Shown here: piece by piece, positions 9,359 to 59,881 of the stretch
Numbering within the stretch: the first letter of the stretch is position 1
Layout of the letters: every line of letters begins with the position of its first letter
Position numbers and translations under genes: made by a program
Assembly: GCF_002854065.1 (NCBI RefSeq)
Contig: NZ_CP024147.1
Length of the DNA stretch: 64,000 nucleotides
Strand: one strand, 5' to 3'
Source of the DNA: Escherichia coli
GTDB taxonomy: Bacteria > Pseudomonadota > Gammaproteobacteria > Enterobacterales > Enterobacteriaceae
The notes under the pieces: model-generated
What the model was told of the DNA's origin: nothing
Databases searched by the model: none
Seen by the model: the letters and a program-made list of their open reading frames with translations, nothing else

Positions 9359-11248
9359 TTATGCGCTACGACGCAGCATACCCTGTTTTTTCAGCCACAC
9401 CAGCAGAATGGAGATGGCCGCAGGCGTGACGCCAGAAATACGTGAAGCCTGGCCGATAGAGGCCGGTTTGTGATCGTTAAGTTTGGCGATCACTTCGTTA
9501 GAAAGACCGGATACCTGGCGGTAATCCAGTGTCGCGGGTAGCAAGGTGTTCTCGTTACGCAGCTGCTTTTCGATCTCATCTTGCTGGCGCGCGATATAAC
9601 CTTCGTATTTAACCTGAATCTCAACCTGTTCCGCCGCCTGTTCGTCTGTCAACGCAGGGGCAAACGGCGTCAGCGTGGTTAATTTTTCATAAGTCATTTC
9701 CGGACGACGCAGCAGATCTTCACCACTGACTTCACGGGAAAGCGGCGCAGTCAGGTGAGCATTCACTTCGGCTGCAGCTTCCGCCGACGGGGTTACCCAG
9801 GTCGATTTCAGACGCTGACGCTCACGCTCGATATTCTCAAGTTTCTCGTTAAAGCGCGCCCAACGTTCGTCATCCACCAGGCCCAGTTCACGACCGATTT
9901 CAGTCAAACGCAGATCCGCATTATCTTCGCGCAGCATCAGACGATATTCTGCGCGCGAGGTAAACATACGATACGGTTCTTTGGTTCCTAAAGTGCACAG
10001 GTCATCAACCAGTACGCCGAGATAGGCCTGAGAACGCGCCGGAGCCCAACCTTCTTTGTCAGCAGACAGACGGGCAGCGTTAAGACCGGCCAGCAAACCT
10101 TGCGCAGCGGCTTCTTCGTAACCGGTAGTGCCGTTAATCTGACCAGCAAAGAACAGCCCCTGGATAAACTTGCTCTCCAGCGTCGGTTTCAGGTCGCGAG
10201 GATCGAAGAAGTCATACTCAATGGCATAACCCGGACGCACGATCTTCGCGTTTTCCATCCCCTGCATAGAGCGGACGATTTGCATCTGCACATCGAACGG
10301 CAGGCTGGTGGAGATACCGTTCGGATAAATTTCGTTAGAGGTCAGCCCTTCCGGTTCAAGGAAGATCTGATGCTGATTTCTGTCGGCGAAGCGCATGACT
10401 TTGTCTTCGATCGACGGGCAGTAGCGTGGGCCGACACCTTCGATCACCCCTGCGTACATTGGGCTACGATCGAGGTTACTGCGGATCACATCATGGGTTT
10501 TCTCGTTGGTATGGGTGATATAACACGGCACCTGCTGTGGATGCTGGGACGCATTGCCCATAAAAGAGAATACCGGCATTGGGTTATCACCATGCTGTTG
10601 CGCAAGCACGCTAAAGTCGATGGTTCGAGCATCAATACGCGGTGGTGTCCCGGTTTTCAGACGACCAACGCGTAGCGGAAGTTCACGCAAACGGCGAGAA
10701 AGCGGAATGGACGGCGGATCACCAGCACGGCCACCGCTGTAGTTATCCAGACCGATATGAATTTTACCGTCGAGGAACGTCCCAACGGTGAGCACGACGG
10801 CTTTGGCACGGAACTTCAGTCCCATTTGGGTAACAGCACCGACCACACGATCGTTTTCGACAATAAGATCTTCAACCGCCTGCTGGAAGATCATCAGATT
10901 CGGTTGGTTCTCCAGCGCCGTACGTACCGCCTGACGGTAGAGCACACGATCCGCCTGAGCTCGGGTAGCACGAACTGCCGGTCCCTTGCTTGCGTTTAGT
11001 ATCCTAAACTGGATACCCGCCTGATCGATCGCTTTCGCCATCAGACCGCCAAGTGCATCCACTTCTTTTACCAGATGTCCCTTCCCAATACCGCCGATCG
11101 CCGGGTTGCAGCTCATCTGCCCCAGAGTGTCGATATTGTGTGTCAAAAGCAGAGTCTGTTGACCCATACGCGCCGCGGCCATCGCGGCCTCGGTGCCTGC
11201 ATGACCCCCGCCAATGATGATGACGTCAAAAGGATCCGGATAAAACAT
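9359..11248 (-). CDS. mnmG: tRNA uridine 5-carboxymethylaminomethyl modification enzyme MnmG (GidA)
   Basis: 629-aa ORF with N-terminal FAD-binding motif [12 protein letters not shown]; adjacent to oriC. Confidence 0.97.
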
Positions 11249-11337
11249 GGTGATTGCCTCGCATAACGCGGTATGAAAATGGATTGAAGCCCGGGCCGTG
11301 GATTCTACTCAACTTTGTCGGCTTGAGAAAGACCTGG

Positions 11338-11606
11338 GATCCTGGGTATTAAAAAGAAGATCTATTTATTTAGAGATCTGTTCTATTGTGATCTCTTATT
11401 AGGATCGCACTGCCCTGTGGATAACAAGGATCCGGCTTTTAAGATCAACAACCTGGAAAGGATCATTAACTGTGAATGATCGGTGATCCTGGACCGTATA
11501 AGCTGGGATCAGAATGAGGGGTTATACACAACTCAAAAACTGAACAACGGTTGTTCTTTGGATAACTACCGGTTGATCCAAGCTTCCTGACAGAGTTATC
11601 CACAGT
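11338..11606. other. oriC: Chromosomal replication origin oriC
   Basis: Three tandem 13-mers GATCTATTTATTT / GATCTGTTCTATT / GATCTCTTATTAG; DnaA boxes TGTGGATAA (11416-11424), TGTGAATGA (11471-11479), TTATACACA (11522-11530), TTTGGATAA (11557-11565), TTATCCACA (11596-11604); about a dozen GATC sites; flanked by mnmG and mioC. Confidence 0.97.
11359..11402. repeat. oriC DNA unwinding element: L, M, R AT-rich 13-mers
   Basis: Three direct 13-bp repeats each starting with GATCT at 11359, 11375 and 11390. Confidence 0.95.
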
Positions 11607-11626
11607 AGATCGCACGATCTGTATAC

Positions 11627-12070
11627 TTATTTGAGTAAATTAATCCACGATCCCAGCCATTCTTCTGCCGGATCTTCCGGAATGTCGTGATCAAGAATGT
11701 TGATCTTCAGTGTTTCGCCCGTCTGTTTTGCACCGGAATTTTTGAGTTCAGCCTCGAGTTTATCGATAGCCCCACAAAAGGTGTCATATTCACGACTACC
11801 AATACCGATTGCGCCAAAGCGGACCGCAGAAAGATCGGGCTTCTGTTCCTGCAATGCTTCATAGAAAGGAGAAAGGTTGTCCGGAATATCTCCGGCACCG
11901 TGGGTGGAGCTGATAACCAGCCAGATCCCCGAGGCAGATAAATCTTCCAACAGCGGACCGTGCAGCGTTTCGGTGGTAAAACCCGCCTCTTCCAGCTTTT
12001 CAGCCAGGTGTTCTGCTACATATTCGGCACCGCCGAGGGTGCTGCCGCTGATAAGAGTGATATCTGCCAT
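11627..12070 (-). CDS. mioC: Flavodoxin-like protein MioC
   Basis: 147-aa ORF (MADITLISGSTLGGAEYVAEHLAEKLEEAGF...), flavodoxin fold; transcribed toward oriC. Confidence 0.95.
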   Translation of the reverse strand: MADITLISGSTLGGAEYVAEHLAEKLEEAGFTTETLHGPLLEDLSASGIWLVISSTHGAGDIPDNLSPFYEALQEQKPDLSAVRFGAIGIGSREYDTFCGAIDKLEAELKNSGAKQTGETLKINILDHDIPEDPAEEWLGSWINLLK

Positions 12071-12159
12071 AAACCGCCACCTTTATTAAGAGTGGCGTAT
12101 TGTACGCTGTGAACGCGTTGGGATCTACCTGTGGAAAAGTATGGGATTAAAAAAGCCGA

Positions 12160-12618
12160 TCAGGGCTTGATGGTACGCATGATCGGGTTCTGCAGGACGA
12201 TCAGTGTCTCGGTGGACTGAATTTCATCAATTGTTTGGATCTTGTTGATAAGTACATGCTGGAGAGCATCGATCGAACGGCACATCACTTTTATAAAGAT
12301 GCTGTAGTGGCCGGTGGTGTAGTACGCCTCGGTCACTTCATCGAGACTTTCCAGCTTTGCCAGCGCGGAAGGATAGTCTTTGGCGCTCTTTAATATAATG
12401 CCGATAAAGCAGCCTACGTCATAACCGAGCTGCTTCGGGCTGACATCAATACGCGCCCCGGTAATGATTCCCGCCTGCTTCATTTTCTCTACTCGAACGT
12501 GAATCGTCCCCGGACTGACGCCAAATTGTTTCGCCAGTTCGGCGTAAGCGGTGCGCGCATTGCCCATTAATGCTTCCAGGATGCCACGGTCCAGATTGTC
12601 GATCAGATAATTTTCCAT
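12160..12618 (-). CDS. asnC: Lrp/AsnC-family transcriptional regulator AsnC
   Basis: 152-aa ORF with HTH region and AsnC-type ligand-binding domain; divergent from asnA. Confidence 0.95.
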   Translation of the reverse strand: MENYLIDNLDRGILEALMGNARTAYAELAKQFGVSPGTIHVRVEKMKQAGIITGARIDVSPKQLGYDVGCFIGIILKSAKDYPSALAKLESLDEVTEAYYTTGHYSIFIKVMCRSIDALQHVLINKIQTIDEIQSTETLIVLQNPIMRTIKP

Positions 12619-16930: not shown

Positions 16931-18799
16931 ATGAGCACTGATAATAAGCAATCATTGCCCGCGATTACCCTCGCGGCGATTGGAGTTGTCTACGGCGATA
17001 TTGGTACCAGCCCGTTATATACACTTCGTGAATGTTTGTCCGGCCAGTTTGGTTTTGGCGTTGAACGCGATGCCGTGTTTGGCTTTTTATCGCTGATCTT
17101 CTGGCTGCTAATCTTTGTGGTTTCCATTAAATATCTCACCTTCGTGATGCGGGCAGATAACGCCGGTGAGGGGGGGATCCTGACGTTGATGTCGCTTGCC
17201 GGGCGTAATACGTCGGCGCGAACCACATCAATGCTGGTGATTATGGGGCTAATCGGCGGCAGCTTTTTCTATGGTGAAGTCGTCATAACACCCGCTATTT
17301 CGGTGATGTCAGCCATTGAAGGTCTGGAAATCGTCGCCCCGCAGCTGGATACCTGGATAGTTCCCCTCTCAATTATCGTTCTCACTTTATTATTTATGAT
17401 TCAAAAGCATGGCACGGCTATGGTCGGTAAGATGTTTGCGCCGATCATGCTGACCTGGTTTTTGATTCTGGCAGGACTGGGGTTACGTAGCATTATTGCT
17501 AACCCGGAAGTGCTGCATGCGCTGAATCCGATGTGGGCGGTGCATTTCTTCCTTGAATACAAAACGGTTTCTTTTATTGCATTAGGGGCAGTGGTGCTGT
17601 CGATTACGGGGGTCGAGGCGCTGTATGCTGATATGGGACACTTTGGTAAGTTCCCTATTCGTCTGGCGTGGTTCACTGTCGTATTACCTTCCTTAACTCT
17701 TAATTACTTCGGCCAGGGAGCGCTGTTGTTAAAGAACCCGGAAGCGATTAAGAACCCGTTCTTCCTTTTGGCACCGGACTGGGCGCTGATCCCGCTGCTG
17801 ATCATCGCCGCACTGGCGACGGTAATCGCCTCGCAGGCGGTTATCTCTGGCGTCTTTTCATTGACGCGTCAGGCGGTACGTCTGGGATATTTGTCGCCGA
17901 TGCGCATTATTCACACCTCCGAAATGGAGTCAGGGCAAATCTATATTCCGTTTGTGAACTGGATGCTCTATGTCGCGGTCGTGATTGTGATTGTCAGCTT
18001 TGAGCACTCCAGCAACCTGGCGGCGGCGTACGGGATTGCGGTGACCGGAACCATGGTGCTGACGTCTATTCTCTCGACTACCGTGGCACGTCAGAACTGG
18101 CACTGGAATAAGTATTTTGTTGCGCTGATCCTGATTGCTTTCCTTTGTGTCGATATTCCATTGTTCACCGCTAACCTCGATAAACTGCTCTCCGGCGGCT
18201 GGTTGCCATTGAGCCTCGGTACTGTGATGTTTATCGTGATGACCACCTGGAAGAGCGAGCGTTTCCGCTTGCTGCGGCGGATGCATGAACATGGTAACTC
18301 TCTGGAAGCGATGATTGCTTCGCTGGAGAAATCACCGCCTGTTCGCGTGCCCGGGACCGCGGTGTATATGTCGCGTGCAATCAACGTCATTCCCTTTGCG
18401 CTGATGCATAACCTTAAACATAACAAGGTATTGCATGAGCGGGTGATTCTGTTAACTCTGCGCACCGAAGACGCGCCATATGTCCATAACGTCCGTCGGG
18501 TACAGATTGAACAACTGTCGCCCACTTTCTGGCGCGTGGTGGCAAGTTATGGTTGGCGAGAAACGCCAAACGTGGAAGAAGTTTTCCACCGCTGCGGTCT
18601 GGAAGGATTAAGTTGCCGGATGATGGAAACCTCCTTCTTTATGTCGCATGAGTCGTTGATCCTCGGCAAACGCCCGTGGTATTTGCGTCTGCGCGGCAAG
18701 CTGTACTTGCTGCTGCAACGTAATGCGCTGCGTGCACCAGATCAATTTGAAATCCCGCCAAACAGGGTTATCGAACTGGGTACTCAGGTCGAAATCTAA
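16931..18799 (+). CDS. kup: Low-affinity K+ uptake transporter Kup (TrkD)
   Basis: 622-aa polytopic membrane ORF ([34 protein letters not shown]...). Confidence 0.95.
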
Positions 18800-27223: not shown

Positions 27224-27251
27224 TTGACTCTGTAGCGGGAAAGCGTATTAT
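27224..27251 (+). promoter_or_regulatory. rrn P2 promoter
   Basis: -35 TTGACT, 16-bp spacer, -10 TATTAT; boxA-like antitermination sequence GCTCTTTAACAA follows at 27290-27301. Confidence 0.8.
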
Positions 27252-27432
27252 GCACACCCCGCGCCGCTGAGAAAAAGCGAAGCGGCACTGCTCTTTAACA
27301 ATTTATCAGACAATCTGTGTGGGCACTCGAAGATACGGATTCTTAACGTCGCAAGACGAAAAATGAATACCAAGTCTCAAGAGTGAACACGTAATTCATT
27401 ACGAAGTTTAATTCTTTGAGCATCAAACTTTT

Positions 27433-28974
<1,542 letters not shown>

Positions 28975-29059
28975 CCTTAAAGAAGCGTTCTTTGCAGTGC
29001 TCACACAGATTGTCTGATAGAAAGTGAAAAGCAAGGCGTCTTGCGAAGCAGACTGATAC

Positions 29060-45048: not shown

Positions 45049-45378
<330 letters not shown>

Positions 45379-45416
45379 TTATTTTCCCCTCCCGACTTTC
45401 ATTGAGCGATTTTCCT

Positions 45417-50370: not shown

Positions 50371-50500
50371 AGTGTGGTAGAATATCAGCTTACTATTGCT
50401 TTACGAAAGCGTATCCGGTGAAATAAAGTCAACCTTTAGTTGGTTAATGTTACACCAACAACGAAACCAACACGCCAGACTTATTCCTGTGGAGTTATAT

Positions 50501-50830
50501 ATGAGCGATAAAATTATTCACCTGACTGACGACAGTTTTGACACGGATGTACTCAAAGCGGACGGGGCGATCCTCGTCGATTTCTGGGCAGAGTGGTGCG
50601 GTCCGTGCAAAATGATCGCCCCGATTCTGGATGAAATCGCTGACGAATATCAGGGCAAACTGACCGTTGCAAAACTGAACATCGATCAAAACCCTGGCAC
50701 TGCGCCGAAATATGGCATCCGTGGTATCCCGACTCTGCTGCTGTTCAAAAACGGTGAAGTGGCGGCAACCAAAGTGGGCGCACTGTCTAAAGGTCAGTTG
50801 AAAGAGTTCCTCGACGCTAACCTGGCGTAA
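50501..50830 (+). CDS. trxA: Thioredoxin 1
   Basis: Active site WCGPC; start placed at [22 protein letters not shown] (109 aa), the ORF track extension of 35 codons is rejected. Confidence 0.97.
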
Positions 50831-52655: not shown

Positions 52656-53759
52656 GTGAATTTACTGACAGTGAGTACTGATCTCATCAGTATTTTTTTA
52701 TTCACGACACTGTTTCTGTTTTTTGCCCGTAAGGTGGCAAAAAAAGTCGGTTTAGTGGATAAACCAAACTTCCGCAAACGTCACCAGGGATTGATACCTC
52801 TCGTTGGGGGGATTTCGGTTTACGCAGGGATTTGCTTCACGTTCGGAATTGTCGATTACTATATTCCGCATGCATCTCTCTATCTCGCTTGTGCCGGTGT
52901 GCTTGTTTTCATTGGCGCGCTGGATGACCGTTTTGATATCAGCGTAAAAATCCGTGCCACCATACAGGCCGCTGTTGGCATTGTTATGATGGTGTTCGGC
53001 AAGCTTTATCTCAGTAGCCTGGGTTATATCTTTGGCTCCTGGGAGATGGTGCTCGGACCGTTTGGTTACTTCCTGACGCTATTTGCCGTCTGGGCGGCCA
53101 TTAATGCGTTCAACATGGTTGATGGCATTGATGGCTTGCTGGGCGGGTTGTCCTGCGTCTCGTTTGCAGCAATCGGTATGATTTTGTGGTTCGACGGGCA
53201 AACCAGCCTCGCAATCTGGTGCTTTGCGATGATCGCCGCCATCCTGCCATACATCATGCTTAACCTTGGTATCCTGGGTCGCCGCTACAAAGTCTTTATG
53301 GGTGATGCGGGCAGTACGCTGATTGGTTTTACCGTTATCTGGATCCTGCTCGAAACGACCCAGGGCAAAACCCATCCCATCAGCCCGGTTACCGCTTTGT
53401 GGATAACCGCCATTCCGCTAATGGATATGGTGGCGATTATGTACCGTCGCCTGTGTAAAGGCATGAGCCCATTCTCTCCTGACCGTCAGCATATTCACCA
53501 TTTGATCATGCGTGCCGGGTTTACTTCCCGTCAGGCGTTTGTGCTGATTACCCTTGCCGCAGCACTGCTCGCTTCCATTGGCGTGCTGGCAGAATATTCT
53601 CATTTTGTCCCGGAGTGGGTCATGCTGGTGCTCTTTTTGCTAGCATTCTTCCTCTATGGATATTGCATTAAGCGTGCCTGGAAAGTTGCTCGCTTTATTA
53701 AGCGCGTAAAACGCAGACTGCGTAGAAATCGTGGTGGCAGCCCCAATTTAACCAAATAA
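52656..53759 (+). CDS. wecA: UDP-GlcNAc:undecaprenyl-phosphate GlcNAc-1-phosphate transferase
   Basis: 367-aa polytopic membrane ORF with GTG start (MNLLTVSTDLISIFLFTTLFLFFARK...); first gene of the ECA cluster. Confidence 0.93.
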   Translation: MNLLTVSTDLISIFLFTTLFLFFARKVAKKVGLVDKPNFRKRHQGLIPLVGGISVYAGICFTFGIVDYYIPHASLYLACAGVLVFIGALDDRFDISVKIRATIQAAVGIVMMVFGKLYLSSLGYIFGSWEMVLGPFGYFLTLFAVWAAINAFNMVDGIDGLLGGLSCVSFAAIGMILWFDGQTSLAIWCFAMIAAILPYIMLNLGILGRRYKVFMGDAGSTLIGFTVIWILLETTQGKTHPISPVTALWITAIPLMDMVAIMYRRLCKGMSPFSPDRQHIHHLIMRAGFTSRQAFVLITLAAALLASIGVLAEYSHFVPEWVMLVLFLLAFFLYGYCIKRAWKVARFIKRVKRRLRRNRGGSPNLTK

Positions 53760-59229: not shown

Positions 59230-59881
59230 GCCACTAACTTGGGAAAACGCCTTCTTTGGTGTTAACAGCGCCATCGTGCGCATTACGTCTGAAGCACCGC
59301 TCCTGACGCCAGACGCGTTAGCGCCGTGGTCACGGGTGCAGGCCAAAATTGCGGCATCAAATACGGGTGAACTGGATGCCCTGCAACAGCTGGGATTCTC
59401 CCTGGTAGAAGGTGAAGTTGATTTGGCGCTACCCGTGAACAATGCCAGTGATAGCGGTGCTGTAGTGGCACAAGAGACCGATATTCCCGCATTACGTCAG
59501 TTAGCCAGCGCCGCATTTGCGCAAAGCCGTTTTCGTGCGCCGTGGTATGCGCCTGACGCCAGCAGTCGCTTTTATGCACAGTGGATTGAAAATGCCGTGC
59601 GCGGCACCTTTGATCATCAATGTCTGATTTTACGTGCGGCGTCCGGCGATATTCGCGGCTATGTCTCTTTACGGGAACTCAATGCGACAGATGCGCGAAT
59701 AGGCCTGCTGGCTGGACGCGGTGCAGGTGCTGAGCTGATGCAAACGGCGCTAAACTGGGCGTATGCTCGCGGTAAAACAACTTTGCGGGTGGCGACCCAA
59801 ATGGGCAACACCGCCGCGCTTAAACGATACATACAAAGTGGTGCGAATGTAGAAAGCACCGCGTACTGGTTATACAGGTGA
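59207..59881 (+). CDS. wecD: dTDP-fucosamine acetyltransferase (GNAT)
   Basis: 224-aa ORF from a GTG start overlapping the rffH 3' end by 23 bp; start is the least certain in the cluster. Confidence 0.8.

Follow-up and report, generated by a model that had tools for sequence, protein, structure and literature searches.

The region spanning positions 11347–11604 of the window (the whole 64-kb stretch of Escherichia coli DNA that was analyzed) is almost certainly the single chromosomal replication origin, oriC, of a non-K-12 E. coli strain, as judged by comparison of its sequence with that of K-12. The region is an already known element, and nothing found here alters existing knowledge of oriC. 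An earlier note on this DNA had called it known biology and not novel, which is correct, the region matching K-12 oriC.

Positions 11249–11640, which comprise the whole mnmG-mioC intergenic region including the annotated oriC, aligned without gaps to E. coli K-12 MG1655, with 391 of 392 bases identical; this alignment to a reference E. coli oriC was the check named beforehand. The 64-kb window as a whole is collinear with MG1655 3,914,421–3,979,260 at 97–99% identity. The origin_of_replication feature "oriC" of MG1655 (NC_000913.3 3,925,744–3,925,975 as annotated) lies in the same mnmG-mioC gap and maps to 11359–11590 of the window. All of the 13-mers, DnaA boxes, low-affinity sites and GATC sites of MG1655 oriC are identical here and the flanking genes and their orientation are the same, the two sequences being different at one base. 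On the left, oriC is flanked by mnmG (gidA; 9359–11248, − strand), and on the right by mioC (11627–12070, − strand). Both ORFs are so annotated in K-12 and in a genome 100% identical to the region, as the earlier note had proposed when it placed the element between these two genes and read it as an enterobacterial oriC, a reading that the near-complete identity to the annotated K-12 origin, the shared gap and the 64-kb collinearity bear out.

Because the alignment with MG1655 is collinear and ungapped, position 11337 of the window, the G of the BamHI site GGATCC, was taken as position 1 of classical oriC numbering. The interval 11338–11606 then corresponds to classical positions 2–270, and the 245-bp minimal oriC (classical positions 23–267), assigned through its identity to K-12 and its 11 GATC sites, to 11359–11603 (+ strand). 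The RefSeq MG1655 feature is only 232 bp long, ends inside the C1 site and omits the R4 box, and it thus falls short of the 245-bp minimal origin. An origin feature was absent from the PGAP annotation of the 100%-identical genome, which is an annotation gap and not counterevidence.

The left part of the region contains the unwinding element. By direct reading and by motif scan, three 13-mers starting with GATCT were located on the + strand, at the places where they had been described before (11359–11402): L (GATCTATTTATTT, 11359–11371), M (GATCTGTTCTATT, 11375–11387) and R (GATCTCTTATTAG, 11390–11402), with 1, 1 and 2 mismatches, respectively, to the 13-mer consensus GATCTnTTnTTTT (PMC5742627). 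In K-12 an AT-rich region adjoins the L 13-mer, and the minimal origin of 245 bp holds 11 GATC sites (PMC5742627). Here, an exact match to the AT-cluster TATTAAAAAGAA was found at 11347–11358 (+ strand), just outside the minimal origin; both its sequence and its auxiliary role in unwinding and DnaB loading are documented (PMC9198467). Two candidate single-stranded DNA (ssDNA) DnaA-binding motifs, TTAT at 11386–11389 and TTGT at 11396–11399, are present on the + strand, and TT[A/G]T(T) motifs are bound by DnaA as ssDNA (PMC9198467).

When the 13-mer consensus was scanned with up to two mismatches across the 64-kb window, matches were not enriched (20 vs. 18.25 expected), so that only the tandem arrangement is informative. 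Three same-strand 13-mers inside 44 bp had a simulated P of ∼2e-4. Nearest-neighbour energies ranked the stretch formed by the AT-cluster and the 13-mers (starting at 11346–11347) as the second to third least stable 44–60 bp duplex stretch in the 64 kb. A natural variant of this element occurs in the O157:H7 strain PV15-279, in which the R 13-mer begins with T in place of G (equivalent of 11390) and the GATC site is lost (TATCTCTTATTAG); this change is absent from the window.

Five 9-mer DnaA boxes, the number given in the earlier note, were found by motif scan at 11416, 11471, 11522, 11557 and 11596. R1 (11416–11424, − strand; TTATCCACA, window strand TGTGGATAA) and R4 (11596–11604, + strand; TTATCCACA) are perfect matches to the consensus, and in K-12 they are the perfect-consensus, high-affinity boxes (PMC5716108). 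They lie in opposite orientation at either end of the DnaA-binding region, R4 marking the right boundary of the origin. R2 (11522–11530, + strand; TTATACACA), in the middle region of the origin, is also a perfect match to TTATNCACA. R5M (11471–11479, − strand; window-strand 9-mer TGTGAATGA) was placed by the motif scan and the published map (PMC5716108). The classical R3 box (11557–11565, − strand; TTATCCAAA, window strand TTTGGATAA) is overlapped by the C3 and C2 sites as placed below.

Perfect TTATNCACA boxes are overrepresented in the window, with 8 occurrences in 64 kb vs. 1.55 expected, and none of 100 shuffles reached 8. At oriC, 189 bp hold three of these eight (simulated P ∼0.0013). 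The other five were mapped through K-12: in kup (17907–17915, + strand), ∼185 bp upstream of the rrnC 16S rRNA gene (27248–27256, + strand), in the yifB-ilvL intergenic region (35618–35626, − strand), in wecA, as a full TTATCCACA (53398–53406, − strand), and in rffC (59572–59580, + strand).

The description of this set of elements as "full" stood in part. It holds for the five R boxes of the classical maps of the 1980s–90s, but current maps contain 11 (PMC6070618) or 12 (PMC5716108) DnaA sites, with R3 in neither list. The current sites are R1, τ1, R5M, τ2, I1, I2, R2, C3, C2, I3, C1 and R4 (PMC5716108), laid out as a left array (R1, τ1, the IHF site, R5M, τ2, I1 and I2), a central R2 and a right array (C3, C2, I3, C1 and R4) (PMC6070618, PMC5716108). 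The AT-cluster (11347–11358), a Fis site (11542–11556) and an IHF interval (11425–11470) also lie inside the region and had not been named.

Each array holds four low-affinity sites 2 bp apart, in the orders R5M-τ2-I1-I2 and C3-C2-I3-C1 (PMC6070618). We placed τ2, I1, I2, C3, C2 and I3 by this published spacing rule together with the known map, and their coordinates are to be read as predictions. A full-text literature search for the low-affinity 9-mers returned matches in oligonucleotide tables only. Counting from R5M, the predicted low-affinity DnaA-ATP sites on the − strand would be τ2 (11482–11490; AGGATCACC), I1 (11493–11501; TTATACGGT) and I2 (11504–11512; CTGATCCCA). On the + strand, with C1 as the anchor, the predicted low-affinity sites would be C3 (11551–11559; TTGTTCTTT), C2 (11562–11570; ATAACTACC) and I3 (11573–11581; TTGATCCAA). 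The low-affinity site C1 itself (11584–11592, + strand; TTCCTGACA) is printed together with R4 in Table 1 of PMC11317965. The C1-R4 double box cTTCCTGACAgagTTATCCACAg has an exact match at 11584–11604; the same sequence is the oriC double DnaA box listed under ChIP-seq peaks (PMC11317965, Table 1), and in K-12 some of the strongest DnaA ChIP-seq peaks are at oriC, over this double box (PMC11317965). Coordinates obtained from the spacing rule fall exactly into place between R5M, R2 and R4, and the array sequence is identical to that of K-12. The low-affinity array sites are thus present as in K-12, and binding of DnaA to them is predicted from the sequence.

The interval between R1 and R5M (11425–11470) is where the IHF-binding site IBS1 and the low-affinity box τ1 are located in K-12 (PMC5716108, PMC9198467). 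The strict IHF consensus (WATCAAnnnnTTR or TAAnnnnTTGATW) had no match in 11200–11700. The best match, GATCAACAACCTG at 11443–11455, deviates at 2 positions, and matching at this level lacks specificity: 502 such matches were counted in the window vs. 486 expected. Since 2-mismatch matches occur near expectation, the consensus cannot locate the IHF site; a putative site is placed in the interval through its identity to the K-12 sequence footprinted by IHF (PMC5716108).

Fis binds between R2 and C3 (PMC6070618). In the corresponding part of the window, the palindrome GAACAAC-G-GTTGTTC (11542–11556) matches the Fis consensus GnnYAnnnnnTRnnC (PMC10380432) on both strands and is the single match in 11200–11700; the consensus is weak, with 114 matches in the whole window. 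Within the mnmG-mioC intergenic region, the sequence departs from K-12 only at the center base of this palindrome, 11549 (oriC position 213), which falls on an N of the consensus and is G here and A in K-12. Of 5407 E. coli genomes, 1263 (an O157:H7 strain among them) carry the exact 70-bp sequence of the window around 11549, and 1143 carry that of K-12. A third allele, C, occurs in strain a15, a sampled pig isolate, and G is the majority state (∼0.6) at the equivalent position in 107 other Enterobacterales among the matches listed. We read G, A and C at position 213 as a neutral polymorphism. That the allele alters Fis occupancy, and thereby shifts the timing or synchrony of initiation between lineages, is very improbable; if it did, natural oriC alleles at this position would be a small source of cell-cycle variation.

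The GATC sites are densely clustered at the locus. The "about a dozen" reported within ∼270 bp were counted as 12 in 11338–11606, and this figure holds for that wider interval, the textbook number of 11 referring to the 245-bp minimal origin (11 in 11359–11603). With 332 GATC sites in 64 kb, ∼1.4 are expected per 269 bp, whereas oriC reaches 12–13; outside 11200–11750 the maximum per 269 bp is 7 in the whole window. To our knowledge, a dense GATC cluster for Dam/SeqA sequestration is specific to Dam-positive gammaproteobacteria. The cumulative G−C curve bottoms out at 11212, ∼150 bp away from the L 13-mer, with a GC skew of −0.039 on the left side and +0.047 on the right, both being local statements for the 64-kb window.

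DnaA boxes elsewhere in the E. coli chromosome serve as transcriptional or titration sites, as at datA, DARS1/2 and the mioC, nrdA and polA promoters (PMC11317965), and in the window a separate double DnaA box, at 12130–12150, regulates mioC. One alternative is that the region only titrates or regulates DnaA, in the manner of datA, DARS1 or DARS2, or only controls the mnmG and mioC promoters, and is not an origin. The datA, DARS1 and DARS2 loci likewise combine grouped 9-mer DnaA boxes with sites for IHF and/or Fis, and they give strong DnaA ChIP-seq peaks (PMC11317965, PMC10380432); datA and DARS inactivate or reactivate DnaA. They lie at other loci, however, and according to those papers they have no 13-mer unwinding element and do not initiate replication. 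By description they are without a duplex unwinding element (PMC5742627, PMC10380432), whereas here the 13-mers and the AT-cluster make up a stretch that is among the least stable in the window. The GC skew changes sign at the locus, and 391 of 392 bases are those of the annotated K-12 oriC. The unwinding element, the skew switch and the match to oriC of K-12 make a cluster that only regulates or titrates exceedingly unlikely; this alternative is rejected, and the region is read as the replication origin.

The genome comparison bears on whether this oriC is the chromosomal one. Of 5426 complete E. coli genomes, 5424 held Megablast matches of ≥95% identity to 11250–11700, many of these at 100%; all of the matches were chromosomal, plasmids giving none, and the median was one matching place per genome. 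Two places matched in a few E. coli records, as expected, because a match may cross the start of a circular record. That the region is a copy of oriC and not an active origin, whether duplicated, plasmid-borne, engineered or inactivated, has next to no probability and is rejected on the collinearity of the whole 64-kb window with the K-12 chromosome around oriC and the zero plasmid matches in 5424 genomes; the high-affinity boxes, 13-mers and GATC sites of 11338–11606 are moreover all intact, and the sole difference from K-12 falls on a base without constraint, which is naturally variable between strains. The chromosomal oriC of the strain is thus the reading retained.

To analyze conservation beyond E. 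coli, an exact 18-mer spanning R5M and τ2 was scanned against one genome per species, yielding at least 120 loci. Seven of the listed loci came from unrelated taxa, with ∼28% identity and neither flanking gene; with ∼9 chance matches expected (2 × 298 Gb / 4^18), they were discarded as chance. The remaining listed loci are from Enterobacterales of many genera. Their ungapped identity to the window was 0.48–0.97, and hence the spacing of the elements is essentially fixed. Among the matches listed, all 104 loci with both mnmG and mioC have the element between these genes, at median distances to them of 225 and 159 bp, compared with 223 and 159 bp in the window.

The window was aligned (MAFFT) with 107 Enterobacterales origins among the matches listed, and all conservation values that follow refer to this set. 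R1, R2 and R4 together were 0.96 conserved vs. 0.58 for unannotated columns (R1, 0.98; R4, 0.98; R2, 0.93). In the unwinding element, conservation was 0.85 for the AT-cluster, 0.86 for the L, 0.74 for the M and 0.94 for the R 13-mer. Low-affinity sites ranged from I1 (0.86), I2 (0.90) and C2 (0.95) to I3 (0.63) and C1 (0.41), the R1-R5M interval scored 0.55, and spacers and outside flanks 0.4–0.6. Annotated elements and GATC columns averaged 0.84 vs. 0.58 for the rest (Mann-Whitney P = 4.5e-15), a comparison that leaves out the 18-mer search pattern itself. Ten of the 12 GATC sites of the interval are kept in ≥81% of the loci; the GATC of the M 13-mer is kept in 100%, and that of the R 13-mer (11390) is 86% conserved across Enterobacterales. 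The R3 9-mer (0.89) and C2 (0.95) are highly conserved, though R3 was dropped from the current maps.

In other Enterobacterales (Salmonella, Citrobacter, Enterobacter, the Klebsiella group, Serratia, Yersinia, Pantoea, Erwinia, Dickeya and others) oriC is therefore found in the same mnmG-oriC-mioC order, with R1, R2, R4, the R 13-mer, C2, I1, I2 and most GATC sites kept, but the spacers, C1, I3 and the R1-R5M interval diverge, the window having the E. coli-type sequence. Location distinguishes it from the dnaA-adjacent oriC of most other bacteria, such as Bacillus subtilis and Thermotoga maritima: here oriC lies between mnmG and mioC, and gene mapping found no dnaA in the 64-kb window. The working principle is common to E. 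coli oriC and dnaA-adjacent origins, a DnaA oligomer guided by DnaA boxes melting the AT-rich element next to them (PMC10316083).

How the origin would work in this strain was derived from the K-12 literature, the two sequences being one base apart. We infer that replication initiates here in a DnaA-dependent and bidirectional manner. The high-affinity boxes R1, R2 and R4 would carry DnaA throughout the cell cycle, and Fis bound at 11542–11556 would prevent IHF binding. As ATP-DnaA rises, IHF would bend the R1-R5M interval and DnaA would fill the two low-affinity arrays, one comprising R5M, τ2, I1 and I2, and the other extending from R4 through C1, I3, C2 and C3. In K-12, Fis blocks IHF, and IHF bending together with the rise in ATP-DnaA fills both arrays from the outside in (PMC6070618). 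The left DnaA-IHF complex would then melt the 13-mers, M and R first, and the T-rich upper strand would be held, through its TT[A/G]T motifs, by the DnaA oligomer. The right-hand complex, together with the L 13-mer and the AT-cluster, would enlarge the bubble, and two DnaB helicases loaded by DnaC would establish bidirectional replication; these roles in melting, strand holding, bubble widening and DnaB loading are those described for K-12 (PMC5716108, PMC9198467). After firing, SeqA bound to hemimethylated GATC sites would block rebinding of DnaA, and thus re-initiation, for part of the cycle, SeqA on hemimethylated GATC being known to stop re-initiation (PMC5742627). Finally, transcription from the mnmG and mioC promoters would modulate initiation, with the mioC promoter itself under the control of DnaA.

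The mnmG (gidA) promoter may have a role in transcriptional activation of oriC. A consensus scan returned promoter-like hexamers TTCTCA-16-TAGAAT at 11302–11329 (− strand), which would direct transcription leftwards into mnmG, away from oriC. Transcription of mioC reads leftwards through oriC (PMC10380432), and the mioC promoter has its double DnaA box TTAATCCCAtacTTTTCCACA at 12130–12150 (− strand), an exact match to the ChIP-seq site listed for mioC (PMC11317965, Table 1). A terminator-like hairpin at the asnC end (12168–12153) abuts this double box (12150–12130) on the − strand. Judging from titles in the reference list of PMC11317965, DnaA-box-assisted termination of asnC transcripts would fit the arrangement of hairpin and box at 12130–12168. 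A second set of promoter-like hexamers, TCCACA-17-TATACT (11599–11627, + strand), is a consensus match that overlaps R4 and points rightwards out of oriC.

As an annotation landmark, oriC sets the origin of bidirectional replication for the window, and with its position fixed, leading and lagging strands can be assigned for the rest of the stretch. The genes to the left of oriC (the atp operon, rsmG and mnmG) and most of those to the right (kup, rbs, rrnC, ilv, rho and wec) are directed away from it.

Several features elsewhere in the window were recorded in passing. A complete rRNA operon at 27433–32657 (+ strand), encoding 16S, tRNA-Glu, 23S, 5S, tRNA-Asp and tRNA-Trp, matches K-12 rrnC; this rrnC-type operon is found ∼16 kb rightwards of oriC, with its transcription directed away from the origin. 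The ilvG gene (36174–37820, + strand) is an intact ORF of 548 aa, annotated as a pseudogene in K-12 MG1655, and its integrity indicates that the source strain is not K-12. At 45346–45401, ∼780 bp of K-12 sequence between ppiC and rep, in the yifN pseudogene region (K-12 3,959,829–3,960,661), are missing, and 88 bp of the glmU-atpC intergenic region (1022–1109) could not be aligned to the corresponding 54 bp of K-12. Rfam matches were the sRNA family STnc410 (864–1021), StyR-44 (29213–29321), the Rev39 5′ UTR (35865–36154, upstream of ilv) and the trxA thermometer (50431–50530).
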